Under the pieces are notes generated by a model. The model searched no databases. It was not told the origin of the DNA and saw only the letters and a program-made list of their open reading frames with translations. DNA of 64,000 bases from positions 3,822 to 67,821 of the forward strand of contig DATNPS010000014.1 in assembly GCA_036703095.1 (NCBI GenBank), read 5' to 3'. The stretch is from Crinalium sp. GTDB lineage: Bacteria > Cyanobacteriota > Cyanobacteriia > Elainellales > Elainellaceae. Below are positions 2,077 through 26,100 of this stretch, one piece after another. A program made the translations under genes and the position numbers. Position 1 is the first letter of the stretch. The number at the start of each line of letters is the position of its first letter.

Positions 2077-2276
2077 GTTAGACAGGTGTTCAGGGGTAGA
2101 ACGATGGTAAATATTGAGTTATTGGTGAACAGGGTGCGTGTGCTTCACTCCCAGTCAAGGGTTTCACCCCTGAACCCCATTCAGTTTCTAAATGACGTTG
2201 CTGTACCTAAAGTAGGAATGCTGCAAAATGTTCATTTTTTTAAGGATAGTAAACTAGCTTTGCTTTTTGTTCTAAC
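2077..2276. mobile_element. Long (200 bp) copy of the GTTAGRAC...GTYCTAAC small dispersed element (family 2)
   Basis: The 5' end GTTAGACAGGTGTTCAGGGGTAGAAC aligns with GTTAGGACGGAGTGCAGGGGTAGAAC of the copy at 20970. The 3' end GTTCTAAC (2269..2276) is the inverted terminus. Confidence 0.5.
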
Positions 2277-2576: not shown

Positions 2577-5500
2577 ATGGAATTGAATAACCAACTATGG
2601 CAGGGAACCCAGAAGAATACGCACATCAGAGCTGTTTTAGGGATGATTTTGCTCATCATAGCTGGGTGGTTGGGGAATTATTTCAGCTGGTCGTTCTTTT
2701 TCCATCTCGACTTTCTGTTTGGGACGATCGCCGTCTGGCTAGTACTGGGTCTATACGGGCAACGTTGGTGTATTCCAGCCGTTATTCTGGCTAGCAGTTA
2801 CACCTACTTCCTCTGGAAGCATCCCTATGCCATCATCATCTTCACTTGTGAAGCCTTATTTGTCAGTTGGTTATTTCGTCGCTCCCGCCAAAACCTTGTT
2901 CTGCTAGATGGCATCTACTGGATATGCATTGGGATGCCTCTGGTCTGGGTGTTCTATCATCACGTCCTGGATCACGATGCGACCCAGACCACCATCATCA
3001 TGCTGAAGCAGGCGGTCAATGGCATCTTTAACGCCCTGGTTGCCAGCCTGATTCTGATCTATCTTCCCATCCATCGCTGGTTTAACCGTCCTCAGGGCAT
3101 CAGTTCCCTTTCTCTGCAACAAACCTTATTCAACCTGCTCATTGCCTTTGTCTTCTTCCCCACCTTGATGCTGATGGCATTGGACAGCCATCGTGTGGTT
3201 CATAACATTGAAGTAACTGCCCAGGAAGAACTCAGGGCAACATCGATAGAATTAGGGGCACAAATCGATGCATGGCACGAGCAACTGTTGCACGCCACAG
3301 GAGAGTTAGCCCAAGTTGCGGCTCAGTCCAACCTGACTCAGACCATTCAATTGCAGCAAAGTACAGAACTCACCCAACGAGAATTTCTAGATTTTCATAC
3401 CCTCTATGTGGTTACTCCTACGGGCGAAGTCAGGGCGGTTTCTTCTGAATCAAATGTGTCAGCAGACGCCACTACAGCATTTAGTCTGGCGAGTGTTCCC
3501 TATTTTGAAATGATTCGTAACACTCGTCAACCGACCTTATCAGGTCTGTTGACCCCATCGAGTGGCATATCCACGGCTGGGGTGATTCTGAGTGTTCCTG
3601 TGATGCAACAAAATCGTCTATTGGGGTTTGTTATCAGTGAGATTGATTTAAATCGCATTGAGCGTCTCTTCAAAACGTATACCCATAAGGGGCTGCAAAT
3701 TACGCTGCTCGATCGCAGTAACACCATCATCACCAGCACTCAGAGCGATCGCATCGTTACCCAAACCTTTGACCCACAGCAGGGGGGCGAAATTCAGGCG
3801 ATCGCCCCCGATAGCTATCAGTGGTTTCCCACAACGGGCAGCTCTATGCTGATGGTGCAGTGGACTAATTCCCTCTTTGTGCGGCAAACTGCGCTGAAGA
3901 ATCAGATTCCCTGGAAATTGCTGATCGAGGTTCCTGCCGCCCCCTTCGTTTCGCAGGTGTTCCAAGTTCACGTCAGAAGTCTGACCATTCTGATGTTGAT
4001 TTCGGGATTAGCTCTAGCATTGGCAACCCTACTGACTCGCCGATTGGTCAGTCCCCTCTCCCAGCTCGCACGGGTTACCACAGACCTGCCCAATCAATTA
4101 GTCGAGCAAAAATCGATTGACTGGCCCAGCAGCTCCGTCATGGAAATTGGCTCCCTCGTCCGCAACTTTAAGGTCATGTCCTCGACCCTGACGCAAAAAT
4201 TTCAGGAGTTGCAAAAGGCTAAAGAAACGGCTGATGCGGCAAATCGGGCGAAAAGTCAGTTTCTCGCCAATATGAGCCACGAGCTGCGGACGCCCTTGAA
4301 CGCCATTCTCGGCTTTACTCAACTCTTGACGCGTAACGCCCCTCCCGGATCAGAAACCCCAGAACTCGCGATTATTCAGCGCAGCGGCGAGCATTTGTTA
4401 GAGTTGGTCAGCGATGTATTGGAAATGTCTAAGATTGAGGCAGGTCGAGTCGTCCTCAATGAAACTAGCTTTGATCTCTATCTTTTGCTCGACACTCTAG
4501 AAGAGATGCTGCAATTCCGGGCTGAATCCAAAGGACTGCAACTGGTGTTTAGCTGCTCACCCAATGTTCCCCGATATGTCCGAACGGATGAGCGGAAACT
4601 CCGTCAAGTTTTACTCAACTTGCTGGGAAATGCGATTAAGTTTACGGAAGCGGGACATGTCATGTTACGGGTGTCATCGGTCATTGATCATTCGTCACTC
4701 GTCACTAGTGAACAGCAAATCATTGACGACCGACAAATAACCAATGACAACCAACAAATGACGATCTGCTTTGAGGTTGAAGACACCGGGCCGGGGATTG
4801 CGGCCCATGAGATGAATCAGTTGTTTGAGGCGTTTTCCCAGACAGAAATCGGACAGAAATCTCAGCAGGGAACAGGGCTAGGGCTCACAATTAGTCGGCA
4901 GTTTGTGCGCTTAATGGGGGGAGATATTACAGCTGACAGTGAGTTAGGCCAGGGTGCCGTCTTTGCCTTTGCGATTAAAGTCGGGTTGGGAAATCCTGCG
5001 GAAATTCAGGTGCAACAGCCCTCTCGACGGGTCATTGGGCTTGCCCCCGATCAACCGAAATATCGCATTCTGGTGGTCGATGATCGCTGGGTGAATCGCC
5101 AATTATTGCTGAAACTGTTGGAACCGATCGGGTTTGAAGTTCGCGATGCTGAAAATGGGCAGCAGGCGATCGCCCTCTGGGAGGAATGGCAACCTCATTT
5201 AATCTGGATGGATATGCGGATGCCTGTGATGGATGGCTATGAAGCGACCCGGTACATTAAAGCCCATTTGCAAGGTCAGGCAACGGTGATTATTGCCATC
5301 ACAGCCAGTGTATTTGATGAAGAGCGGGCAATAGTTTTGGCTGCTGGCTGCGATGATTTTGTCAGGAAGCCCGTCTGGGAAGAAATCGTATTTGAGAAGA
5401 TGACTCAATATTTAGGAGTTCGTTATCTTTATGAAGAGAATGATCAGAAAGACACTCAACATGAAGGAATGAGCGCATTAAACAATGGAATGAATGAGGT

Positions 5501-5732
5501 TAAACTGCGTCCGTCGTTACTCCTATCCTCGGCTTCGCTTCAGGTCATGCCTTCTAGTTGGGTTGCTCAACTGCACCAGGCAGCGATGCAACTCGACGAT
5601 AAGCAAATTCTCTCGCTGGTCGCGACGATTCCCCCAGAACATGCTGCCCTTGCCAGCGCCCTGACGGATCTGGTCAACCGAGTGCGTTTTGATACGATCG
5701 TCAATCTTTCTCAACCCGTTGTTCAGACATGA
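2577..5732 (+). CDS. Hybrid sensor histidine kinase (multi-pass membrane N-terminus, extracytoplasmic sensor region, HAMP-like linker, HisKA, HATPase_c, C-terminal receiver)
   Basis: 1051-aa ORF. The H-box is [17 protein letters not shown] boxes are [18 protein letters not shown] and [10 protein letters not shown]. The receiver is [12 protein letters not shown]...[15 protein letters not shown]...KP. About 6 hydrophobic helices occupy the first 200 aa. An AAGGGAGA SD-like motif lies upstream of ATG 2577. Confidence 0.9.
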
Positions 5733-8125
5733 ATAGTGAACAGCCCAGGGCAACTAAAGGCAATATTTTGATTGTCGATGATGCATTGGACAATCTCAAT
5801 CTGTTGCACGCAACGCTGACCCAACAGGGGTACGAGGTGCGTAAAGCGCTCAACGGCTCAATGGCCCTGATGGGGGTACAGGCGGCTCCCCCCGACTTGA
5901 TTCTGCTGGACATTCGGATGCCTGATATGGATGGCTATGAAGTCTGTCAACGGCTGAAGGCATCCGAGGTAACCTATGATATTCCGATTATTTTTCTTAG
6001 CGCTTTGGATGAATCGCTGGACAAAGTGCGGGCGTTTTCATTAGGAGCAGCAGATTACATCACCAAACCGTTTCAAACTGAAGAAGTCCTCGCTCGGATT
6101 GAGAATCAATTAGCGCTTCAGGCTGCCAAAGCAGAAATTCGCAGGTTCAATGCTGAACTGGAACAACGGGTGCAGCAACGCACCGAGGAATTGCAGCGGG
6201 AAGTGCGAGAGCGCCAGCGGGCTGAGGACGCGCTCCGTCAACAGGCAGAACAACGGCAACTGGTTATGGCGATCGCCCAACGCATTCGTCAGTCCTTAGA
6301 CCTGGACACCATTCTCAATACCACCGTGGCCGAAATCCGCCAGCTTTTGCAAGTCGATCGCGTTCTCATCTATCGATTTGAGCCAGATTGGAGCGGCATG
6401 GTCGTGGTTGAGTCTGTGGTCAGCCGTGAACACTCCATTATCGGCAAAACCTTCATCGATCACTGCTTCCAAGAAGGCTTTGTGGAGCAATACCGACAGG
6501 GGCGGATTCAGAACCTGGAGGATATTTATACCGGAGGGTTGGCTGAGTGTCACGTTGATCTCTTAGCCAGTTTGGGGGTGAGGGCAAACTTAGTCGTGCC
6601 CATTGTGCAGGAGGAAACCCTGTGGGGGCTTCTCCTCGCCAACCAGTGTGTTCAGCCGAGACGATGGACACCTCTGGAAGTAGACCTGATGCAGCAGCTC
6701 TCAACTCAGGTGGCGATCGCCATTCAGCAGTCCGAACTCTATCATCAGGTACGACAATTCAACGTTGAATTAGAGCGCCAGGTTCAAGAGCGAACCCAAC
6801 AATTGCAGCGATCGCTCGACTTTGAAGCCGCTCTCAAACGCATTACAGATAAAGTTCGAGATAGCTTAGATGAAAGCCAGATTTTGCAAGCGGCAGTGCA
6901 AGAACTGGTGCATGTCCTTCAAATTGAATGCTGTAATGCAGGAATTTACAACGCTGAACTGACGACATCGACCATTACATTTGAATACACCACGTCTTTG
7001 CCCTACTATCAGGGTTTGGTGGTGCAGATGGTTGATTATCCAGAAATTTATCGCCAACTCCTGCAACATCAAAGCTTACAACTGTGTAATGCCCACCCTC
7101 GATTGATTCGTGAAACGTATTACCAATTCGCTATCCTGGCCTATCCAGTCGCAGATGATCAGGGCGTAATTGGAGATTTGTGGCTATTTAAGCCCCAAGA
7201 ATCCCTGTTTGAAGATCTGGAAGTGCGGCTCGTGCAGCAAGTTGCAAACCAGTGTGCCATTGCCCTGCGCCAAGCACGGCTATATGCGACGGCCCAAACC
7301 CAGGTGGAAACCCTGGAAAGCCTGCACCAGCTTAAGGATGATTTTCTCAGCACGGTTTCCCATGAATTGCGATCGCCTGTGACGAACATGAAGATGGCCA
7401 TTCAAATGCTGGACGTTGCCCTTAACCAGATCGAAACGAGTTTTGCAGCCATAGAAACAGACTCGCCATCCAACAAAACGGTTCAAAGAGCTATCCACTA
7501 TTTACAAATTCTCGACAGCGAATGCGAACGAGAAATTAATCTAGTCAATGATCTGCTGGACTTACAACGATTGGAAGCGGGTGTTCAAGACACCATCATG
7601 GATTGGATTGACTTGAATCTCTGGCTCCCTACCTTAATCAACGCCTTTGAGGAACGCGCGCAGGCTCGACAGCAACAGTTACAGATCGAAATACCACCCC
7701 AACTCCCTCAAATCTGCTCCGACTCTGATGCTTTGAGCCGCATCCTCACAGAACTGCTGCACAATGCTTGCAAATACACCCCACCCGGAGAAACGATTAC
7801 CGTAACGGCTCAAGTCGATCCATCTTCTCGCTCCTCGTTGCAATCTTCATCCTTAAATCAAGCCAAAGGAGCGGGCGCAGCGATGCGTCTCTCAACCTTC
7901 TTACTGAGCATCACTAACTCCGGGGTCGAAATTCCTGCCGATGAACTTCCTCGTATTTTCGAAAAGTTTTACCGGGTTGTCAGTGCCGACCGATGGCAGC
8001 AAGGGGGAACGGGGTTGGGGCTAGCTCTGGTGAAAAAGCTGGTAGAGCACTTGGGAGGAACGATTGAAGTCAGAAGCATTCAGAGTCGAACAACTTTTAG
8101 GATAGAGTTGCCTGCTACTTGTTGA
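5729..8125 (+). CDS. Receiver-coiled coil-GAF-GAF-histidine kinase (response regulator/sensor kinase fusion)
   Basis: 798-aa ORF. The N-terminal REC is [10 protein letters not shown]...[14 protein letters not shown]...ITKPF. Two GAF-like segments are [26 protein letters not shown] and [14 protein letters not shown]. The H-box is [12 protein letters not shown] and the G-box is [15 protein letters not shown]. The start overlaps the upstream stop (ATGA at 5729..5732). Confidence 0.9.
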
Positions 8126-8162
8126 TAGTTTAAGGGCTGCTATAGCTTTCACAAATACATTG

Positions 8163-8193
8163 TGAACAGGGTTCTACCCATGCACCCTGTTCA
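8163..8193 (+). terminator. Stem-loop downstream of the kinase gene (TGAACAGGGT / 11-nt loop / ACCCTGTTCA, followed by AAATTT)
   Basis: A 10-bp perfect stem lies 38 nt after the stop at 8125. Its sequence is related to the reverse complement of the family-2 core (CAGGGGTTCTACCCCTGCACCC). Confidence 0.5.
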
Positions 8194-8229
8194 AATTTCA
8201 GTTGAGATCGCTATAGAAAAAGTTGCTTG

Positions 8230-8373
8230 ATGAGATTGGCAAACATTCCCATATTTTACTTGCCAACCTTTCACATCAACCGAATTTTGAGCAGGTTAGG
8301 GATGAGCGATCGCACACAAGCAGCGGTCGTGGTCTTGAAGCGGGGAATTGCCAAATTGCCAATTTTCAACTGA
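8230..8373 (+). pseudogene. Possible orphan fragment of a LuxR/NarL-type HTH output domain (47 codons)
   Basis: The translation is MRLANIPIFYLPTFHINRILSRLGMSDRTQAAVVVLKRGIAKLPIFN. The segment H-x3-IL-x-KLG-x-x-DRTQAA is the recognition-helix signature of LuxR-family HTH domains. No receiver or remaining HTH is present upstream. Confidence 0.3.
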
Positions 8374-8396
8374 ACTTAAGTTCAGTTGAAAATTGG
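8359..8396. repeat. Perfect 38-nt palindrome CCAATTTTCAACTGAACTT|AAGTTCAGTTGAAAATTGG
   Basis: Exact self-complementarity read directly from the sequence. It overlaps the end of the LuxR-like fragment. Confidence 0.7.
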
Positions 8397-8546
8397 TTTT
8401 AGATATAGGTAGTGGCAGTCCTTTCGTTCCTGCAAATACTCAACTCTGAGTGGGCGACAAAGCAGCATCAGTTTTATAAGCTAAGGTCACGCAAATGCCA
8501 AGGTGAGTTGAACCATTACAGTCAGGAGGAATCGCAGATATGAGTC

Positions 8547-9155
8547 GTGGTAATCACTTTGCGCGATGAGAATCCCTTTTCGCTTGAGTGCCCGATGAAT
8601 CAAGATCATTATCCTCAGCAGCTTGTTGTTCCCCCCTCTCAGCAGGATCACTACCAGGGAGAGCTGAATGCCCCAGTGGTGCTTGTGGAATATGGGAATT
8701 ACCAATGTTCCCAGTGTGGGGAAGTACATCGATTAATTCAGTCAATTCAGCAAGATTTCGCGTCCGTGTTTCCTGAGGGGAATGAGATATGTGTCGTGTT
8801 TCGTCATTTTATCGAGCATTTAATCCATCCTCAAGCACAAAAGGCAGCAGAAGCAGTGGAAGCCGCTGCCGCACAGGGACAGTTTTGGCAGATGCACAAC
8901 ACCTTATTTGAGCATCAACAGGAGTTAGGAAACGGCTATCTGGTGGAATATGCCAATCATCTAGGACTTGATATCTGCCAGTTTCTGCAAGATATCTCCC
9001 AACAAGTTCACATTGATCGCATTAACAGAGACATTGAAAGTGGAATCCAGAGTGACGTAAAGGCTGCTCCAGCCTTGTTCATTAATGGAATTCGCTACAC
9101 CGATCGCTGGAATCTTGAGTCCTTGATAGTAGCCCTGATCAATGCAAGTCAATAA
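8547..9155 (+). CDS. DsbA-family thiol:disulfide oxidoreductase (thioredoxin fold, CSQC active site)
   Basis: Motifs are DHYQGELNAPVVLVEYGNYQCSQCGEV (CxxC), QGQFWQMHNTLFEHQ and APALFINGIRY. The start is ambiguous: GTG 8547 in the track, or ATG 8595 (MNQDHYPQQ...). A 9-codon micro-ORF (8540..8569) with a strong AGGAGG sits just upstream. Confidence 0.8.
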   Translation: MVITLRDENPFSLECPMNQDHYPQQLVVPPSQQDHYQGELNAPVVLVEYGNYQCSQCGEVHRLIQSIQQDFASVFPEGNEICVVFRHFIEHLIHPQAQKAAEAVEAAAAQGQFWQMHNTLFEHQQELGNGYLVEYANHLGLDICQFLQDISQQVHIDRINRDIESGIQSDVKAAPALFINGIRYTDRWNLESLIVALINASQ

Positions 9156-9190
9156 GCTAATACCGTTTTTATATAAAGATGCGCTGAATT

Positions 9191-9251
9191 GAAAAGGGGA
9201 TGAAGGGGGCGTTGCCCCCTTCGTGGGGGTTCCACCCCCACCCCCCTTTTC
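9191..9251. repeat. Y-shaped G/C-run structure: outer stem GAAAAGGGG/CCCCTTTTC enclosing two hairpins (GAAGGGGGC-GTT-GCCCCCTTC and GTGGGGGT-TCC-ACCCCCAC)
   Basis: All three helices are perfect Watson-Crick pairings read from the sequence. It lies 36 nt after the DsbA-like stop. Confidence 0.55.
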
Positions 9252-9317
9252 ATAAAGTTTCAGCTTCATATTGAATTGGTACAACCAAGAAATTATCAGA
9301 ATATCGAGGTGAAACCT

Positions 9318-9740
9318 ATGAACCAGCCTGCACACTCTCAGCTTGTCCCTATTGCAACAAGAAATGAATATCACTGGCAGCACTATTCAAACCCCATTCA
9401 ATTTCATCCTCAATCTCATCTTTTGTCTGCAAAACGTAGCCGCAATCGAGGGATCATTTTATCGCGCCAGGGGTGGCAAAAGTTGATGCAAGCTGGAGTG
9501 CTGTATGACGAGTTTGGAAGTCGCTACACCTATGAGCAGTTGAGCGATCGATCGTTTTTAGATGAGCGCACTGTTAGCCGATTATTAAGTTGTGAAGTAA
9601 AAGTGGGCAAGCGCACGATCAAGACATTTTTTTACGCCTTCAATTTAATATTGGAGGCTAGTGATTACATTACATCTAAGAGTAATGGAATGAATGCTAT
9701 ATCGCCTGATGCACCCACTCGCATTGCTTTAACGCGATAG
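9318..9740 (+). CDS. Small protein consisting of the HTH-like N-terminal module found on cyanobacterial STAND NTPases (stand-alone paralogue of 62874.. N-terminus)
   Basis: KRSRNRGIILSRQGWQKLMQAGVLYDEFGSRYTYEQLSDRSFLDERTVSRLLSCEVKVGKRTIKTFFYAFNLILEASDY aligns residue for residue with KRKRRGVILSQEGLQRLQEAQ...YAYTLEQLSQQTGLSVRSISRLQSCKVAVDRQTLEEFFRAFNLTLIEQDY at the other end of the window. The track ORF starts at TTG 9276. ATG 9318 has a GAGGTG upstream. Confidence 0.6.
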   Translation: MNQPAHSQLVPIATRNEYHWQHYSNPIQFHPQSHLLSAKRSRNRGIILSRQGWQKLMQAGVLYDEFGSRYTYEQLSDRSFLDERTVSRLLSCEVKVGKRTIKTFFYAFNLILEASDYITSKSNGMNAISPDAPTRIALTR

Positions 9741-9862
9741 ACTGAACAACTTTTGATTTGTTGATGAGCTAAGCGTTGCGATCGCATGAGTTACAGGTTT
9801 GATTTCTTGCAGAACATTTGGTAGATACTCCGTTGGTACACAGCTAGACGTAGGACTGCAAA

Positions 9863-10597
9863 ATGATACAAGCTATTTCTCGCCCCAAGTCTGACGATTG
9901 TGCTAATCAAGCTGTAAGGAAAGCTATAAGATCACACATTCTGCTGATCGAAAGTGAGAGCGAATTAGCTCAGCTAGTCGCCCAAGAACTTGATCGTGAA
10001 GGGTATCACGTTAGCTTGGTTGAAGATGGCACGAGTGGATTAATAGCTGCTCGCCAAACTAACCCGAATTTGATTATCGTGGCTTGGGCTCTTTCAGGGG
10101 TATCCTGTGTAGAGTTTTGTCATCGGCTACGCTCGACCTACAACTATGTGCCCATTATTGTATTAACTCGTGAAGGACAGGTTCGCGAACGAGTCATGGG
10201 TTTAGATGCAGGGGCGAGTGATTGCCTGAGCAAACCCTTTGTTGTAGAAGAACTAATTGCTAGAGTTCGGGCGCACTTAAGACAAGGCCCCAAAGACGCG
10301 CATCTCCTACAATTTGAGCAACTCGTTCTTAATCAGAAGACACGTCAAGCCTACTACAAAGATCAAGAAATTGAGCTAACAGCGAAAGAGTTCGATCTGT
10401 TGGGATATTTGATGCGGCATCCCTTACAAGTATTGACCCGTGACCAAATTCTAGGTGGTGTTTGGGGTTACGAAAATTTTGCGGCTTCAAATGTGATTGA
10501 AGTTTATATTCGATACTTGCGAATCAAGTTAGAGGCACAAGGTGCAAAAAATTTGATTCATACAGTTAGAAGTGTGGGGTACGTATTGAGACTCTAA
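9863..10597 (+). CDS. OmpR/PhoB-family winged-helix regulator with an atypical receiver (phospho-acceptor Asp replaced by Ala)
   Basis: The receiver reads ILLIESESELAQL...NPNLIIVAWALSGVSCVEF...PIIVLTR...LSKPF. The canonical DD pair is ES, and the LD acceptor position is VA (Ala74, codon 10082..10084). The C-terminal winged helix is ELTAKEFDLLGYLMRHP...VIEVYIRYLRIKL...IHTVRSVGYVL. Confidence 0.85.
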   Translation: MIQAISRPKSDDCANQAVRKAIRSHILLIESESELAQLVAQELDREGYHVSLVEDGTSGLIAARQTNPNLIIVAWALSGVSCVEFCHRLRSTYNYVPIIVLTREGQVRERVMGLDAGASDCLSKPFVVEELIARVRAHLRQGPKDAHLLQFEQLVLNQKTRQAYYKDQEIELTAKEFDLLGYLMRHPLQVLTRDQILGGVWGYENFAASNVIEVYIRYLRIKLEAQGAKNLIHTVRSVGYVLRL

Positions 10598-17397: not shown

Positions 17398-17995
17398 CTA
17401 TCGGACTGCTGTGAATTTGCGGAGGGGTTGGATAACCACCAGCATGAACCGTCCAGGCACATCGACTTTGAATTCCACCATCGTTGCAACCTCAGGAGGA
17501 ACATTAGTCGTCTGGACGTTGGTCATCGGTGCAGAGGTGAGTGAGGCTTCAGGGTAAACGCGATCGAACACTTCACCAATCATATGGAAGGCAGAAGTAT
17601 AGTTCGGGCCACCAACGCCGAAGAAGATGCGAACCGTTTCACCGACTTTGGCATGAAGGGGAGATTTTTCTGCCAGTGCTTTCGATGCTCCATTGAACAC
17701 AAAGTAGGAAGGTTGTTCGCTCAGCAGCTTATCGACGCTGAATTCTTGGTTACCGCGATCGCTAGCCGCTTGAACCGTATAAAGTTCACCTTGCATCACG
17801 TAAAATTCGCGATCGACTTTGGATAAACCACCTTCGGGTTCTACCAAAATCAGACCATACATGCCATTGATAATGTGATGTGCCACCATTGGCGTTGCAC
17901 AGTGGTAAACATACAGGCCAGGGTTAATGGGCTTAAAGGTAAAGACTTTTCCATCACCCGGAGATGCTTGCGTCAACGCTCTTGAGCTAGCGTTG
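17398..17995 (-). pseudogene. nirK: Copper-containing nitrite reductase (NirK) remnant, truncated at both ends
   Basis: The 192-codon ORF begins at TTG. It contains FKPINPGLYVYHCATPMVAHHIINGMYGLILVEP (the His-Cys...His...Met copper-ligand loop) and domain-2 sequence up to VEFKVDVPGRFMLV. The first ~110 residues, which carry the N-terminal Cu-ligand histidines, are absent. The C-terminus diverges (VVIQPLRKFTAVR) where VDH... is expected. Confidence 0.75.
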
Positions 17996-18477: not shown

Positions 18478-20787
18478 ATGACAAGTCCTTCTATTCGTCT
18501 CAATACGCCTAAAACGGCGACTCGCAGGTGGGGAATTAGCCTACCTGCCTGGTTAGTATTGATTTGCGTCATCATGTTTTCCGTTCTGTTAGGAGCGGGA
18601 GCCGCCATCTGGAAAAATGCACCCCCTATTCCAGCAGCCGTGGTTTCGCCTCAGCAAAACGTGCTGTTCACACAGACTGAAATTCAGTCTGGTCAAGAAA
18701 TTTACCTCGCACGCGGCGGTCAGCATATTGGCAGCGTATGGGGGCACGGTAGTTATCTTGCACCTGATTGGTCAGCAGACTTTTTGCATAAATGGGGTTT
18801 AGCTACCGCAGGTGTGTTGCAAAGTGACAATCCCAACTTTACTCAAGCGGATCTCGAAGCACTGCCAGTGGGCGATCGCGCCAGCTTAGAAGCCAGAGTG
18901 GCAGAGCAATTTAAGACTAATCGCTTTGTTCCTGACACTCAAATTTTGACACTGACAAACGCTCAGTCAAAAGCGCTGCCTAAAGTGTTTGCAGACTATC
19001 AAACGCTGTTGTCCAATGGCTCACGTGAGTTCTCCATTCCCAGCGGTTGGTTTACGAACAATGAACAAATTCGGGACGTTAGTACCTTCTTTGCCTGGAC
19101 GGCTTGGGCTGCGTCGGCAAACCGCTTTAATGCACCATTCTCTTACACCGCCAACTTTCCCCATGACCCACTGGTTGGCAATGAAGCTCCCGGTCAGTTT
19201 GTCATCTGGTCGATCGCCTCTGTGATTCTATTAATTGGTGGCATCGGCGTTTTTCTATTCGTCAACCTGAAGATGGAGGATGCAGAAGAAGTACAGGAGG
19301 TCGTCGCCCGCCCTGCCCTTCGCATTCCCACCGCTAGCCAAAAAGTCACTACTCTATTCTTTGGCGTGGCGATGGCACTGTTCCTGGTACAGATCGCCAT
19401 GGGCATGGTGACAGCTCACTATGCGGTTGAGGGAGATGGGTTCTATGGTGTCCCGCTCGATAAGTTTCTTCCCTATGCTGCTTCACGCACCTGGCACTTG
19501 CAGTTAGCGGTATTCTGGATTGCCACCTGTTGGTTGGCGGCGGGTCTGTATTTCGCCCCTCGCTTTGGTAAACAAGAGCCCAAAGGACAGGCGATCGGGA
19601 ATAGCGTACTGCTGGGTGCATTGACGGTCGTGGTCGTGGGTTCCATGATCGGATCTTGGGCAGGCATCCAAGGAATTTTGGGAACTAATCTCAGCTTCTA
19701 CCTGGGACATCAGGGCTATGAATACGTTGAACTCGGTCGCGTCTGGCAAGTTCTCCTCATCGGTGGCATGACCTTCTGGCTGTGGTTGATGTACCGCGCC
19801 CTCAAGCCTGCATTGAAACAAGAAGGCTCGAAGACTGGGTTAAATCACTTCTTCCTGTATTCTGCCATCACGATTCCTCTGTTCTACTCTGCTGGGTTGA
19901 TGTACTCAAACCACACTCCGATGAGCGTTGCTGAGTACTGGCGCTGGTGGGTGGTTCACCTCTGGGTGGAAGGGTTCTTTGAAGTGTTTGCAACCGTGGC
20001 GATCGCTTACCTCTGTAGTGAACTGGGGTTCCTGAAGCGGGAAGCAGCTCTGAGAGCCACCTATCTGACAACCATTCTTTTCCTGGGCAGTGGCATTATT
20101 GGAACGTTGCATCACCTCTACTTTGCAGGCACACCCGTTTTCATTACCGCCATGGGTTCAGTTGCATCTGCACTAGAAGTTGTGCCTCTTACACTGATTG
20201 GCTTTGAAGTAGCAAAATCTCTCAAACTCTCACAAAATGCTCAGGGCTTCTATCGAATGCCACTGCGCTTCTTCATCGCGACTTGTGTATGGAACTTGAT
20301 TGGTGCCGGAGTGTTTGGTTTCTTAATCAATCCACCAATTGTTCTTTACTACTCACAAGGCCTTAACACCACTCCAATTCATGCTCACTCAGCATTGTTT
20401 GGTGTTTACGGTTCACTGGCTCTTGCGCTCATGTTATTTGCGCTGCGAGAGATTACCCCTGAAAAAGCCTGGAATGAAAAGCTACTGCGGTTCTCGTTCT
20501 GGCACATCAACGGTGGCTTGGCCGTAATGATGATCTTCGGTCTCATCCCCAACGGTTTCTACCAGTTAGTTCAGTCTGTCAATCACGGCACCTGGTACGC
20601 TCGTAGTGCAGAGGTTATTCACTCTCGCTTTATGGAATGGACTGTTTGGCTTCGTATTCCCGGTGATGTCATCTTCACCGTTGGTGCGCTGGCAATGATG
20701 TTGTTTGTGGGTCAGGCAATCTGGGCGATCTTTCGTCAACCCACTCAAGCTCAGCCAGAGTTAGTTGAAGTCAAAGAAGTTGTATAG
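18478..20787 (+). CDS. norB: Quinol-dependent nitric oxide reductase, large single-subunit form (qNOR, NorB/NorZ)
   Basis: 769 aa. It has an N-terminal TM helix plus a ~250-aa extension, followed by a 12+ TM heme-copper-oxidase core with WWVVHLWVEGFFEVF, GTLHHLYF and HAHSALFG histidine motifs. Confidence 0.9.
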   Translation: MTSPSIRLNTPKTATRRWGISLPAWLVLICVIMFSVLLGAGAAIWKNAPPIPAAVVSPQQNVLFTQTEIQSGQEIYLARGGQHIGSVWGHGSYLAPDWSADFLHKWGLATAGVLQSDNPNFTQADLEALPVGDRASLEARVAEQFKTNRFVPDTQILTLTNAQSKALPKVFADYQTLLSNGSREFSIPSGWFTNNEQIRDVSTFFAWTAWAASANRFNAPFSYTANFPHDPLVGNEAPGQFVIWSIASVILLIGGIGVFLFVNLKMEDAEEVQEVVARPALRIPTASQKVTTLFFGVAMALFLVQIAMGMVTAHYAVEGDGFYGVPLDKFLPYAASRTWHLQLAVFWIATCWLAAGLYFAPRFGKQEPKGQAIGNSVLLGALTVVVVGSMIGSWAGIQGILGTNLSFYLGHQGYEYVELGRVWQVLLIGGMTFWLWLMYRALKPALKQEGSKTGLNHFFLYSAITIPLFYSAGLMYSNHTPMSVAEYWRWWVVHLWVEGFFEVFATVAIAYLCSELGFLKREAALRATYLTTILFLGSGIIGTLHHLYFAGTPVFITAMGSVASALEVVPLTLIGFEVAKSLKLSQNAQGFYRMPLRFFIATCVWNLIGAGVFGFLINPPIVLYYSQGLNTTPIHAHSALFGVYGSLALALMLFALREITPEKAWNEKLLRFSFWHINGGLAVMMIFGLIPNGFYQLVQSVNHGTWYARSAEVIHSRFMEWTVWLRIPGDVIFTVGALAMMLFVGQAIWAIFRQPTQAQPELVEVKEVV

Positions 20788-21048: not shown

Positions 21049-21177
21049 GGACATGACTACAGGTATCTGACAAGACCAATGAAAATCAAGGAGGCAGAGC
21101 CTCTAAAACTACATGGCTAGCTAAAAGCCAGCCACGAGAATTAACAACGTTGTCTCAGAATTGATATTAAGGGACTT

Positions 21178-23016
21178 TTAAGCCACTACAAAGTGACTTG
21201 CATTAATAGTACTACTTAAGATATTTTGCAGAGTTACGAGTGGTATAAAAGTTGCACCAGCACCGCTACCATTTACATCCATCATTACCTTGGTATCCAA
21301 TCCTATCTGTTCTAACCTAACAAACTGGCGTAAGGAGGTTAGCGGATGATTGCCGCTAAATTCAGGTCTCGCAAAAATTCCCACTAGATTAATGAGATCG
21401 TCTGCTGGGTTGAAGTCTTTTATCGCATCTTCACCCTCGCTCACACCGTTATAGGTAAATATGTCTCGACCCAGACCACCTGTTAAAATATCTGCCCCTA
21501 GTCCCCCAACTAATACATCGCTTCCCCGACCTCCTAAAATTTTATCGTTACCGCTACCACTATCCAGCCAATCATCGCCATCCTGTCCATCAAGATAGTC
21601 CTTTCCGTTACCCCCATAAAGGCGATCGTTTCCTCGCTTTCCGCTCAGACGATCGCTATTGTCTAAACCACTCATGACATCATTGAAATTACTGCCCATC
21701 AACTTATCCGCTTTCTTCGTTCCAGTCAGCGTTCGAGGTTTAGGACGAGTTTTAAAGACAATGGGTGATGGTATTGCACTGGGGAGAATAGTGTCTCCCT
21801 GGAAAGAACCGTTTGCAGAATTGAACCCTGATGTGACAAAGTTCCAGGTCTGTGGCGTAGCCTGTCCTGTAGACGTATTAGTTGCCAGATCTTTGAATGC
21901 ACCAGGTGTATTTGTAATGTAGTAGTTCGTGCCAGGTTGCAGTAGACCTGCTGAATCTATTGTGACAACCAGATTGTCGGCACTAAGGGTAACTTGACCG
22001 GAGTTAACGTCAATCGTTGATATTAATGCATTGTCAAACGATCGATAGATCGAAAGGCTTCCCGCGCCTTTGAGAATAGGTTTGGTGAACGTTAAGACGG
22101 GCTTTCCAGCAGCGTCAGTTCCGTTAAACGTAAACGCAGAAGTTGGATTAGTGGAATCTCCCACTAAATTCAGCTCTACTGTCGCTCTCACTTGAAGTGA
22201 GGATTCACCCAGCATTCCACCGTATTCAACAAAGTAACCTTTAATATTGGGGTTTGTGTTCGCTAAATCATTCCATTGTCCAGCAAACTGTCCTGTGCCC
22301 AATAAATAACTATAGTGTTCACTGCCATTAAAGTTATTTGGCTCGGTGGGCATCCAGTTGGTATATGCTCCGTTTAAAGCGCTGCCTGCCTGTCCCTGTC
22401 CGCGCCAGAACAGTGTTCCGGTTTCTGGCCCGGTTGCCCACTGCCAGTCGCCTTCTTGTTGGGTATCGCTGGCACCAATCCAACCATCCTGCTGAAAGTT
22501 TTTGACCAAAAATTGATTTTCTGCGGGACTGGTTATAGTTGCTAAATAACCTTGTAGCCCAAAGAAATTTCGGCTTTCAGCCGTCGTTTTTGCTGTTTCC
22601 CAAGACACAATGCCAGGAACAAATTCATAGAAACGATCATTGGCAAAATCGGCGATCGCTTTACCTAATGAGATTTGCAGCTTGCGCGCGCTTCCTGCAT
22701 TCACGGCTCCCATGCTGAAATAAGTGATTTGTCTTAGAGCCGCTTCATAGACCTCGGTTGTTGCAGTGCCCGTCAAAACCAGCTTTCCTGCACTCGTGTC
22801 ATAGTTCCATGCTAAACCGTTGACAGTGCCGCCAGTAGAAATTCCCTGTCCCTGAAAACCCAGCCGATCCGTAGTGGCAAAGCCATCTGTTAAAGTAACA
22901 ATCGCTCCGTTAAGAGTGGTGGTGCCATTGGCCGCGATCATGAGAGTGGGCGCGATCGCCTGTGGAATAGTGCCGTTTGCGACGACAGCACCAGATGCAT
23001 TAAGAATGGGTGACAT
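21178..23016 (-). CDS. Secreted C-type-lectin-domain / Ig-like / RTX calcium-binding protein with type I secretion-style C-terminus
   Basis: 612 aa with no signal peptide. The CTLD (aa ~127-266, nt 22219..22638) reads SWETAKTTAESRN...GYLATITSPAENQFL...GWIGASDTQQEGDWQWATG...WMPTEPNNF...GQWNDLAN. An Ig-like segment covers aa ~280-400. The RTX repeats are GGNGKDYLDGQDGDDWLDSGSGNDKILGGRGSDVLVGGLGADILTGGLGRDIF. The tail DAIKDFNPADDLINLVGIF...ASHFVVA resembles the VC_A0849-type T1SS target domain. Confidence 0.85.
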   Translation of the reverse strand: MSPILNASGAVVANGTIPQAIAPTLMIAANGTTTLNGAIVTLTDGFATTDRLGFQGQGISTGGTVNGLAWNYDTSAGKLVLTGTATTEVYEAALRQITYFSMGAVNAGSARKLQISLGKAIADFANDRFYEFVPGIVSWETAKTTAESRNFFGLQGYLATITSPAENQFLVKNFQQDGWIGASDTQQEGDWQWATGPETGTLFWRGQGQAGSALNGAYTNWMPTEPNNFNGSEHYSYLLGTGQFAGQWNDLANTNPNIKGYFVEYGGMLGESSLQVRATVELNLVGDSTNPTSAFTFNGTDAAGKPVLTFTKPILKGAGSLSIYRSFDNALISTIDVNSGQVTLSADNLVVTIDSAGLLQPGTNYYITNTPGAFKDLATNTSTGQATPQTWNFVTSGFNSANGSFQGDTILPSAIPSPIVFKTRPKPRTLTGTKKADKLMGSNFNDVMSGLDNSDRLSGKRGNDRLYGGNGKDYLDGQDGDDWLDSGSGNDKILGGRGSDVLVGGLGADILTGGLGRDIFTYNGVSEGEDAIKDFNPADDLINLVGIFARPEFSGNHPLTSLRQFVRLEQIGLDTKVMMDVNGSGAGATFIPLVTLQNILSSTINASHFVVA

Positions 23017-23080
23017 AATTTAGTTGAACCTGAAATATTGCAGCACTTTTAAAACTTTCAAACAGAGTGAAATAGCTAAA

Positions 23081-23135
23081 CGTCTGTCTTGAAGTTGATG
23101 GAGAAATCCCCAACGAACGTACTTCAAGACAGACG
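23081..23135 (-). terminator. 15-bp perfect stem (CGTCTGTCTTGAAGT / 25-nt loop / ACTTCAAGACAGACG) between the giant gene stop and the lectin gene start
   Basis: Arms 23081..23095 and 23121..23135 are exact complements, positioned 10 nt downstream of the giant-gene stop on the minus strand. It could be a terminator, attenuator or RNA-processing site. Confidence 0.45.
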
Positions 23136-23144
23136 CTCAGCGTC

Positions 23145-26100
23145 TTAAATGCGAGGTCTACGGCGAATAATGATATTTTTGCCTTTCCCTGCGGAGATCT
23201 TGACGTGACGGGAGAAGACTACGATTCGGTCATTTCCTCGACCTGTGCGGATGATGCTACGACCACGACCCACTTGAATACGATTGTTGCCATTGCCAGC
23301 CGTAATGCGGTTATTGCCATCACCAACCGTAATGTGATTCGGGCCAGTTCCAGTCGTAATCCGGTTATTACCATGACCAGCGGCGATCGCCTTACGACCA
23401 TTGCCTGCTTTAACGGTATTGTTACCGTTACCTACGATGATGATGTCAGTTCCTTTGCCGGTGATGATTTGGTTATCGCCTTGACCTGCGATTACAGTAT
23501 TGTTTCCGCTGCCTGCGTTAACCACATTATTCCCTTCACCCGCTGAAATAACGTCAGCACCCTGTCCGGTCACGATCCAGTCAACACCGCTGCCAGCCGT
23601 GACATTGTTGTTCCCATTTCCTGCATTAATGGCATTTGTTCCATCTCCTGCATTGATCTGGTCATTGCCATTACCCGAGGTGATCTGATCATCGCCACTG
23701 CCTGTCAGAATGACATTATCGCCTCCACCAGCACTCACAGAGTTGTTGCCACTACCTGCATCAATCACGTCATTGCCAACTCCGGTGAAGATGGCATCAG
23801 CTCCAGTACCAGCCGTAATGTGATTGCTACCATCACCCGCATTGATAACGTTATTGCCATCGCCCGCGTTGATTTGATCATCACCACTGCCAGTTGTAAT
23901 CTGGTCATCACCAGTCCCGGTCGTGATCGTGTTAGCACCCTCGCCTGCGCTGATCGTATTGCTACCTTCACCCGCATTGATCTGATCGTTGCCACTACCG
24001 GACGTGATCTGATCATTGCCATTACCCGTTGTGATTTGGTTATCACCTTCACCCGCATTGATGGTGTTGTTGCCGACACCTGCATTGATGACGTCGTTAC
24101 CACTACCCGTGATGATTTGATCATCACCCCGGCCCGTGAGGATGGTATTGTTGCCGTCACCCGCCTGAATCAGATTGTTTCCATTGCCAGCCTGGATGAC
24201 ATCGTTACCGCTGCCCGTGGTAATTTGATCATGCCCATCACCTGTTGTAATCGTGTTGTCGCCTTCACCCGCGCTGATGCGATTGTTGCCGCTACCAGCA
24301 TTGATGGTGTCATGGCCACGACCAGTCGTCATCGCATTGTTGCCTTGACCTGCGGTGATCCGGTTGTTACCGTCCCCTGCATCAATGGTGTTATCACCGT
24401 CACCAACCTGGATGACATCATGCCCGGCTCCAGTCGTAATGTTGTTATTACCTTCCAGATCCAGAATGGTGTTATCACCCTGACCACCTTCAATACGATC
24501 ATTGCCACGGAGTCCCTGAATGACGTTGGCTTGGTTATCTCCAATGAGGTGATCATCAAAGTTAGAACCTTCCAGGTTTTCGATCGCAAAGTAGAGATCT
24601 CCTTTCGCTGCACCACCCAAGCCCACTCTCTGGGCAAGGTCAACCACAACCCCTTCAGTCGCAGTAGCGTAGGAAGCAGTGTCAGTTCCCTCACCACCAT
24701 CCACAATTTCAAAGGGATTGACGGCATGAGCGCGACCGCTATCGATTACGTCATCGCCCTGGCCGCCAAACAACATGTCGTTATCGTCTTGTCCAAAGAG
24801 TGCATCATTGCCCTCCTCTCCCAGGAGCACGTCATCACCTGCGCCGCCAAACACGGTGTCGCTACCCATCCCTGCATAGATTGCATTACTGCCCCGATCG
24901 CCAGTAATGGTGTCGTTAAAGGCGCTACCCAAGACGTTCTCAATGGTTTCTAGAGCATCAGTGCCACCGAAGCCATCCGTTGCTGTACCCGTTGCTAAAT
25001 TGACCGTGATGCCAGATGGATCTCGGCGGTAGTTGACTGTATCAATCCCCGCACCACCCTTGAGAGTATCGTTGCCCTCATTACCTAGCAGCAGGTCATT
25101 GCCACCCGATCCTTCAATCACGTTATCGGACGCGTTGCCAATTAAGACATCATCATGAGTGCTACCAGTGATGTTTTCCAGTCCCGTCAGGCGATCGTAG
25201 GTGTTAAAGCCATCTTGAGCCGTGCCTGTGTTGGCTACAAAGCTGGTTTCGATGTCACCCAGCAAGTAGTTGAAACCTGTGGTATTGGGATTGCGGTGTT
25301 GGTAACGGGAGCTTTCATCCAGGTTGACGACTGCACCTGCTACCGAGTTGTCGTAGCTAACAGTATCGACACCTTCGCCACCATCGATCGCATCATTGCC
25401 ATCATCACCCCGCATCCAGTCATCACCAACACCACCCGCAATCTGATCGTCACCGGATTGTCCGTACAGGGTATCGTTGCCTGCACCACCTACAATCACA
25501 TCATTGTCTGCACCGTTTCCGGGCAGGAAGTTCATCAGTGTAGTCCAGACGGTGCCAAAGAAGCGTCGTACCTTCGCGTTGCCGCCCGTGATGGTATCGT
25601 TACCACCGCCGACCGAGAGGTTGTCGTTACCAATTCCGCCAATCACAACTTTTTCACGATTGTCGGTGGTATCAACCACATCGGCTCCACCCACTTCCGT
25701 ATTGGTCGAAGTAATTTCAAAGCCCTCGCTATCGAAAGTGACGGTTGCCTCATCGCCAAAGATGACATCCGAACCTGTTGTTGTAGGATTGGCAGTCGTT
25801 TGAACGCGATCGCCGTTTGCTCCAGCAACCACGATATTTTCACCACCACCCAGACTAAACAGGTCAGCACCACCTTCTCCGATATTTTCGGACTGAGCCG
25901 TCACAACCCGTCCCGTTGCATCGACTTCAGCAGAAGCATCATCACCAAACAGGGTATTCGTGCCACCATTCGCGACGAACTGGTCATTGCCCACACCAGC
26001 AATCGCTGTTGTCGTACCGCTATTCAGGGTGAAAGTGTCTGTGCCACCCGCAGTAAAGTCACTGCTGGTGATTCTTTGGAAGTCACCCGATTCATTAAAC

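Follow-up and report, generated by a model that had tools for sequence, protein, structure and literature searches.

We analysed a 64,000-nucleotide stretch of DNA from Crinalium sp. (contig DATNPS010000014.1; the whole stretch is hereafter called the window, and positions are counted from its start) and found that it encodes, on its minus strand, a modular RTX protein with a C-type lectin-like domain (CTLD). C-type lectins are usually regarded as animal proteins. The gene is real, intact and under selection, and its 612-residue product possesses the ligands of the Ca2+- and sugar-binding site (site 2) of the animal domains. We propose that this product is probably a self-standing, secreted, Ca2+-dependent lectin, which is most likely exported by a type I system and acts on polysaccharides, either those of the matrix or those of other cells.

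The open reading frame (ORF) of the lectin gene begins at the first possible ATG after an in-frame stop codon. The deduced protein has a mass of 64.6 kDa and a pI of 4.66. From the N- to the C-terminus, it consists of a beta-sandwich domain (N-domain), the CTLD, a Big_5 Ig-like domain, eight RTX nonapeptides and a C-terminal tail (Table 1). The RTX block was matched by Pfam HemolysinCabind in four stretches with 77.4 bits. The Big_5 family is also precomputed on two orthologues, P0003 and P0004. An earlier sequence-only reading of this stretch had described a CTLD that lacks the usual lectin cysteines and is joined to an Ig-like domain and to RTX repeats. The ORF span, the coordinates of the EPN and WND motifs and the peptides WMPTEPNNF and GQWNDLAN given there were all reproduced from our translation. 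As for the domains, the Lectin_C match was found above the Pfam cut-off, and Big_5 and HemolysinCabind matched the Ig-like and RTX parts. The absence of cysteines extends over the full length of the protein.

The same reading had assigned EPN and WND to Ca2+ site 2. When the lectin domain was used as a single phmmer query against the PDB sequences, its segment YTNWMPTEPNNFNGSEHYSYLLGTGQFAGQWND was aligned to CD23 with EPN, the Glu and WND in register, and the same segment was aligned to aggrecan FEKWRPNQPDNF...GEWNDV. We also searched PDB with a profile of 33 family modules (alignment A2). The E-values were 6e-17 for CD23, about 2e-15 for CLEC4F and Endo180, about 2e-14 for mincle, 1e-13 for MBP-C and langerin and about 1e-12 for DC-SIGN. 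In the A2 alignments with three CD23-derived chains and CLEC4F, EPN corresponds to EPN or QPD, Glu233 to the Glu of "GEDC", Tyr235 to the Cys of the same motif and WND to WND. MBP-C, langerin, mincle and DC-SIGN were matched by E-value, and the residue correspondences come from the CD23-derived chains, CLEC4F and aggrecan. The spacing E225-(8)-E233-(16)-N249 is identical to that of E168, E176 and N192 in bovine mincle, which are site-II and sugar ligands (reviewed in PMC7618208). The window protein has the cis-Pro and the full set of five site-2 ligands (E225, N227, E233, N249 and D250), all spaced in the canonical way. The assignment of the two motifs to site 2 was thus borne out by the alignments with CD23, aggrecan and CLEC4F and by the mincle spacing; judged from these alignments, the motif match to site 2 is not a matter of chance.

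The predicted structure agrees with this assignment. An AlphaFold2 model of residues 1-290, built on A2, had a mean pLDDT (predicted local distance difference test score) of 95.8 and a pTM (predicted template modelling score) of 0.91. In this model, the lectin domain adopts the C-type lectin fold, which is defined by two helices, two sheets and a long loop region. The model implies that the N-terminal beta-sandwich and the lectin domain are held in a fixed arrangement. When the model was compared with PDB by Foldseek, the top 50 structures were all animal C-type lectin domains, which include CEL-I, CD23, mincle, aggrecan, SRCL, snake-venom lectins, SP-D and MBP; single-domain hits had TMt values of 0.59-0.80 and E-values from 2e-8. 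No bacterial structure was present in this top 50 or among the top 60 of the A2 sequence-profile search of PDB.

In most homologues the N-domain is aligned together with the lectin domain, and the two form a conserved two-domain module. Modelled alone, the N-domain had an AlphaFold pLDDT of 83.7. It was matched by no Pfam family and by no PDB fold at E<1e-3, the best fold match being an accessory domain of human B4GALNT1 (E 0.018). Its motif is LTLTG...Y..ALR.V.Y, and giant proteins with thousands of residues contain up to 42-43 copies in tandem. Such tandem copies of the N-domain gave summed weak matches to Pfam CLSTN_C (Calsyntenin C-terminal, PF19699), which is the sole lead to its identity.

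Three features of the lectin domain depart from the animal pattern. The first is Ca2+ site 1, whose equivalents we take to be D184, E188, N228 and His234 from the MBP-A numbering (D161, E165, N188 and D194). His234 stands at the position of the site-1 Asp; in the 33 modules of A2, this position is D in 17, H in five and N in five. In langerin, sugar is bound with site II alone. The second is the absence of the two canonical disulfides, which Zelensky and Gready number C1-C4 and C2-C3: Tyr235 replaces Cys3 and Asn253 replaces Cys4. Disulfides are typical of the C-type lectin family, although the Pfam model does not require them. Among the 33 family modules, Cys3 is kept in six and its partner Cys in four. 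Because Tyr already occupies the Cys3 position in most members, including those exported by the type IX secretion system (T9SS), the cysteine-free state is older than the fusion to RTX repeats. The third is a stretch of about 17 extra residues (TGPExGTxFW), inserted after beta-2 and before the long loop, which is missing from the animal domains. This insertion is near-invariant across the bacterial family.

We then considered how common such domains are. A full scan of 1.84 billion representative proteins with the hidden Markov model (HMM) of the family gave 50,555 matches at E<=1e-3, 23,280 at E<=1e-10 and 4,976 at E<=1e-30. Relatives of the two-domain module show 30-46% identity to the window protein over both domains and share the hallmarks GHYYEFV, GYLATITS, GWIGxSD, TGPExGTxFW, EPNN, EDY and WND. 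The module is found in one to four copies in large proteins. It is widespread in surface proteins of Bacteroidota and other bacteria, for example in T9SS-exported proteins of Flavobacterium and Mariniflexile, in proteins of Bauldia and Hymenobacter and in others. The source databases already give some of these the name "C-type lectin" or "Lectin C-type domain". The site-2 ligands are the most conserved positions of the family alignment: in A2, E225 is kept in 32 of 33 sequences, P226 in 33, N227 in 29, E233 in 31, W248 in 33, N249 in 31 and D250 in 33. For a wider count we took the best 150 family HMM matches, 63 of which hold 243 lectin domains. EPN was present in 154 of the 243 domains, QPD in 30 and WND in 161, and 144 possessed all five site-2 ligands. 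Other natural variants at the EPN position are EPD, QPN and EPS. The Pfam families found on the relatives (DUF11, Cadherin_5, Big_9, PKD, TIG and Por_Secre_tail) are those of typical bacterial surface proteins. RTX repeats were present in only five of the 63 sampled lectin-bearing proteins; the combination of lectin and RTX recurs in P0143 (four lectin domains), P0180, P0131 and P0105. The sequence-only reading had implied that a bacterial lectin with EPN and WND is a rarity. This does not hold: with about 5,000 clusters at E<=1e-30 and five intact ligands in 144 of 243 domains, the EPN/WND-intact lectin domain is common in bacteria and not exceptional. In the literature on bacterial C-type lectins, prokaryotic EPN motifs, lectin-RTX proteins and cyanobacterial cases we found no experimental paper on this family, and no solved structure of any member was seen among the top matches of the PDB sequence and fold searches. 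The window lectin is an added member of an already labelled kind of domain, and the family itself is apparently uncharacterised.

Close orthologues of the lectin gene are few. P0002 has 82% identity and the same architecture, and P0003 has 61% identity; both begin at the same N-terminus as the window protein. In P0003 (loci L004 and L005), WND is replaced by WFD, so that a Ca2+ ligand, Asn, is changed to Phe. In P0004 (L002, L003 and L006, the last in an Elainellaceae metagenome-assembled genome), most of the lectin domain is deleted and the RTX part is frame-shifted. This suggests that the lectin function is decaying in that lineage. In the comparison with L001, the ratio of non-synonymous to synonymous substitutions (dN/dS) was 0.07 for the whole gene and 0.05 for the lectin domain; dS was 1.4-2.1, which is near saturation, and these ratios are approximate. 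Purifying selection on the lectin gene is nevertheless clear from this comparison.

We infer type I export from the RTX block, the lack of an N-terminal signal peptide and a C-terminus like those of serralysin, lipase and SMc04171 proteins. The N-terminus is without a charged or hydrophobic signal-like stretch. In PDB sequence matches, the C-terminal third corresponds to the RTX regions of CyaA, lipases and serralysins. The match to the NCBIfam SMc04171 family extends to residue 597, and that to the lipase 2z8z to residue 555. The C-termini of the orthologues are HFILT and NFVVI. An acidic, cysteine-free protein without signal peptide shows the usual traits of type I secretion substrates. Export that avoids the periplasm would also be in keeping with the lack of disulfides, although most of the family, T9SS members included, likewise has Tyr at the Cys3 position.

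From these results, the following course of events can be proposed. The lectin gene would be transcribed, probably from its own promoter, and the protein, made without a signal peptide, would leave the cell unfolded and in a single step. The exporter would be a type I system whose genes lie elsewhere in the genome and which would recognise the C-terminal region. RTX nonapeptides bind Ca2+ outside the cell and fold into a beta-roll. The N-domain/CTLD module would then fold and load Ca2+ at site 2; the site is seen in the alignment and the model, and its chemistry is expected to follow that of the animal domains. The EPN-bound Ca2+ would ligate sugars with equatorial 3- and 4-hydroxyl groups, namely mannose, glucose, N-acetylglucosamine (GlcNAc) and fucose. 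By binding the sheath or exopolysaccharide matrix or neighbouring cells, the lectin could contribute to matrix organisation, aggregation or adhesion. Such a matrix-binding or adhesion role, which would parallel that of the Rhizobium Rap lectins, is likely by analogy. The giant DUF4347-RTX protein encoded next to the lectin would be connected with it by a common export route and surface role, and not as a demonstrated subunit.

Several observations weigh against this proposal. The C-terminal secretion signal was matched by no specific model; the type I tail of the sequence-only reading is presumed from the RTX block, the lack of a signal peptide and the C-terminal similarities. A scan of 15 ORFs flanking the lectin gene in the 64-kb window found no ABC transporter, membrane-fusion or TolC-like gene; it took in 13 ORFs of at least 150 residues, which are all of that size except a 154-residue ORF (9276..9740). 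Type I secretion genes are often unlinked to their substrates, and their absence nearby does not exclude secretion. Moreover, WFD in P0003 and the domain loss in P0004 indicate that sugar binding is not kept in every lineage. The site-1 equivalent may be incomplete, with His234 for Asp, and affinity or loop stability may differ as a consequence. Finally, a single lectin domain is monovalent, and avidity would have to be accounted for.

We next consider the giant gene, which encodes 11,769 residues. HemolysinCabind matched the giant protein in 24 stretches within its last 4,800 residues. Its last 450 or so residues (23145..24500, minus strand) consist of very regular G-x-G-N/D-N/D-x-I-x-x repeats followed by the basic tail ...KNIIIRRRPRI, which is unlike a usual type I secretion signal. 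The sequence-only reading had placed the lectin gene 128 bp downstream of the giant gene and in the same orientation, and the spacer (23017..23144) was confirmed. On this basis it had suggested a two-component surface system of a fibre and a soluble or tip lectin. In such a system, the lectin would dock in trans on the DUF4347-RTX fibre as a sugar-binding tip or decoration, and the two genes would be co-transcribed. Besides the adjacency, the pair is retained at two other loci, L007 (another metagenome, identical lectin protein) and L001 (giant C-terminus 86% and lectin 82% identical). Neither BLASTP nor HMM searches at maximum sensitivity detected a copy of the N-domain, the lectin domain or Big_5 in the giant protein itself; by these searches it has no lectin domain of its own, but neither does it show a shared repeat that could hint at docking. 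Elsewhere the module lies in cis within large surface proteins. For example, P0105 (1953 residues) contains DUF4347, the N-domain/CTLD module, eight Big_13 repeats and C-terminal RTX repeats in one chain. This is domain-fusion evidence that DUF4347, the CTLD module and RTX repeats work together. The parts joined in P0105 are divided between the two adjacent genes of the window.

In contrast, the surroundings of the more distant relatives do not agree with a fixed partnership. At L005, which carries the 61% identical orthologue, no giant gene lies in the 5.4 kb upstream. In its place there are a spacer of about 620 bp, an opposite-strand FGGY kinase, an M15 peptidase and further genes of unrelated kinds. 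A related 8.6-kb contig has no giant gene in the 7 kb downstream. The co-occurrence was sampled in three lineages, and a scan of genome contigs gave only two loci, one of which is too short upstream to be informative. Two scans of metagenome contigs, one with alignment A1 and one with the CTLD and Big_5 segment, gave no further orthologous loci. A search with the least repetitive part of the giant C-terminus gave only generic RTX proteins of 30-47% identity. The synteny is seen only in close relatives, where it may be simple inheritance. In addition, the lectin and the giant protein share no domain except RTX repeats, and no docking feature was found. The N-domain is not a specific docking module, as it recurs as a generic repeat in many proteins unrelated to one another, T9SS substrates among them.

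The spacer itself also speaks for separate transcription. A very stable hairpin follows the stop codon of the giant gene (-49.2 kcal/mol, z -5.9; none of 200 shuffled sequences was as stable). L001 has a hairpin of non-homologous sequence at the same place (about 2190..2240; -52.8 kcal/mol, z -5.4). A structure that is kept while its sequence differs is what would be expected of a terminator or of an RNA processing or stability element. The idea that the hairpin is a dispersed repeat was rejected, as its arms were found nowhere else in the window. When the spacer was compared with that of L001, only the last 45 nucleotides or so before the lectin ATG were conserved, and the -10 element of a promoter-like site lies inside this stretch. 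Taking these results together, adjacency, synteny at L007 and L001 and the P0105 fusion favour a link between the two proteins, but the locus without a giant gene, the hairpin with its promoter-like stretch and the sharing of RTX repeats only make a co-transcribed fibre with a docked tip lectin rather unlikely. A related idea is that the pair is a split giant adhesin, in which the lectin module became a separate secreted protein that re-associates with, or acts alongside, the DUF4347-RTX fibre in trans. This we also regard as unlikely.

The proposal of a self-standing sugar-binding lectin has further to be weighed against a CTLD with a non-sugar ligand. Binding of ligands other than sugars is widespread among C-type lectin-like domains. 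Secondary sites of these domains are reviewed in PMC7618208. In the window protein, the ligand could be a protein or a mineral or ice surface, or the Ca2+ could be purely structural. The His in place of the site-1 Asp would be in line with this, the TGPExGTxFW insertion could reshape the binding face, and WFD is tolerated in P0003. However, the site-2 ligands and the cis-Pro are complete and canonically spaced, they occupy the positions that the family conserves most, and the alternation of EPN (154) and QPD (30) is what is expected of a sugar-selecting site. We consider a non-sugar ligand to be quite improbable. That the protein is an RTX cytotoxin or haemolysin is extremely improbable and is effectively refuted by the domain content: the repeat block is matched by CyaA structures and by the NCBIfam models RTX_toxin and EhxA, and the Joint Genome Institute (JGI) names P0002 a "Ca2+-binding RTX toxin-like protein", but the NCBIfam matches are confined to the nonapeptides and reach 72 and 65 bits, where the cut-offs are 1000 and 2000. 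The protein lacks a hydrophobic pore-forming region and an acylation domain, and the remainder is lectin, Ig-like domain and beta-sandwich.

The positions of the features are collected in Table 1. As for the other genes in the window, a nitric oxide reductase of the single-subunit NorB type, with matches to the NorB cytochrome c-like domain and to COX1, is encoded at 18478..20787 on the plus strand and is convergent to the lectin gene. Adjoining it, a 192-residue multicopper-oxidase-like ORF (17398..17976, minus strand) has a partial Cu-oxidase_2 match and is maybe a fragment. Two hybrid histidine kinases (dCache and GAF domains), a DsbA-like thioredoxin and an OmpR-type response regulator are encoded 10-20 kb from the lectin gene (2577..10597, plus strand).

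Table 1. Positions of the lectin gene, its domains and motifs, and the adjoining features in the window.
Feature	Position	Strand	Basis or remark
Lectin gene, whole	21178..23016	-	612 aa; stop codon 21178..21180; ORF list and translation
N-terminal domain, aa 1-125	22642..23016	-	Beta-sandwich and one helix; no signal peptide
CTLD, aa 126-268	22213..22641	-	Pfam Lectin_C, family profile and predicted fold
Pfam Lectin_C match, aa 154-252	22261..22557	-	E 9.3e-7; 30.0 bits against cut-off of 22.6
EPN motif, E225-P226-N227	22336..22344	-	Ca2+ site-2 ligands; Man/Glc/GlcNAc/Fuc-type specificity determinant; aligned to solved lectin domains
Glu233	22318..22320	-	Third acidic site-2 ligand, 8 residues past E225; aligned to Glu of CD23 "GEDC"
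WND motif, W248-N249-D250	22267..22275	-	Site-2 ligands on beta-4; aligned to WND of CD23, aggrecan and CLEC4F
Big_5 bacterial Ig-like domain (spacer), aa 300-395	21832..22119	-	Pfam 23.6 bits, exactly the cut-off
RTX block, aa 429-547	21376..21732	-	Eight in-register Ca2+-binding nonapeptides (aa 450-521) and capping segment
C-terminal 65 aa, ending ...NASHFVVA	21181..21375	-	Presumed uncleaved type I secretion signal region
Terminator-like hairpin	21112..21136	-	11 pairs, T-rich tail; 42 nt past lectin stop; consensus scan
Promoter-like site, TTGAAA-16 nt-TG-AATATT	23034..23061	-	Prediction; consensus scan, 9/12 matches, extended -10 TG
RNA hairpin, 21-bp stem	23075..23141	-	Starts 4 nt past giant stop; candidate terminator or processing/stability element
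Giant gene, 11,769 aa	23145..58454	-	DUF4347 N-terminus (E 1.7e-55), RTX C-terminus; 3 Cys

The lectin gene is a clear example of a very large bacterial family that keeps the Ca2+ and sugar site and the EPN/QPD switch without disulfides. The most useful by-product of the analysis is the recognition of this large EPN/QPD lectin family and of its partner N-domain. Current views are not overturned, and database pipelines already label such domains. As a small (65 kDa), cysteine-free and confidently modelled protein, the window lectin is a convenient candidate for the first structure and glycan study of the family, and it could test whether the "EPN = mannose type" rule of animal lectins holds in bacteria. 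For the organism, the gene points to Ca2+-dependent polysaccharide recognition in the surface or matrix toolkit, beside the giant RTX protein. If the split-adhesin idea were true, the pair would be a two-gene adhesin in trans, and the bacterial EPN/QPD family at large would be a genuine class of Ca2+-dependent lectins that share the specificity code of the animal C-type lectins.

Compared with the animal C-type lectins (CD23, mincle, langerin, MBP, DC-SIGN and CEL-I; PF00059), the window protein has the same predicted fold, the WIG(A) core motif, EPN, the Glu and WND, and the cis-Pro position, and the EPN/QPD alternation of the animal domains is also used by the bacterial family. In contrast, it is cysteine-free, with Tyr235 and Asn253 in place of Cys3 and Cys4, it possesses the TGPExGTxFW insertion and His234 for the site-1 Asp, and it has a fixed N-terminal beta-sandwich. 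Its host is a bacterium, and an RTX tail replaces the neck, coiled coil or membrane anchor. Within the bacterial N-domain/CTLD family it is a clear member, which shares the motifs and both domains; most relatives, however, are far larger, and those of Bacteroidota carry CHU_C or Por_Secre_tail T9SS sorting domains.

Among other secreted systems, the PA14 domains of MpIBP and MhLap use a Ca2+ ion to bind the vicinal hydroxyls of terminal sugars (PMC6650083, PMC8092209). As in the window lectin, where sugar binding and type I secretion are predicted, a Ca2+-dependent sugar-binding module is tied to RTX repeats and type I secretion. Their module, however, has the PA14 fold and lies in cis in a megadalton adhesin with an N-terminal retention module, whereas the window lectin is a separate 65-kDa protein with a C-type lectin fold, in which no retention module was identified. 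With 612 residues, a generic N-domain and a single Ig-like spacer, it is not a giant adhesin of the LapA/MpIBP type. The Rap proteins of Rhizobium leguminosarum (RapA and others) are small Ca2+-binding lectins, which are secreted by the PrsDE type I system and bind the cell's own exopolysaccharide or capsule (PMC9298526). They are not homologous to the window lectin, as they consist of Ra/CHDL cadherin-like domains, none of which was found in it by Pfam. The logic that we propose is nevertheless the same: a small, type I-secreted, Ca2+-dependent binder of polysaccharide in the biofilm matrix (PMC9298526), with secretion and ligand of the window lectin being those that its sequence suggests. 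By this analogy, the Rap lectins appear to be its nearest functional analogue.

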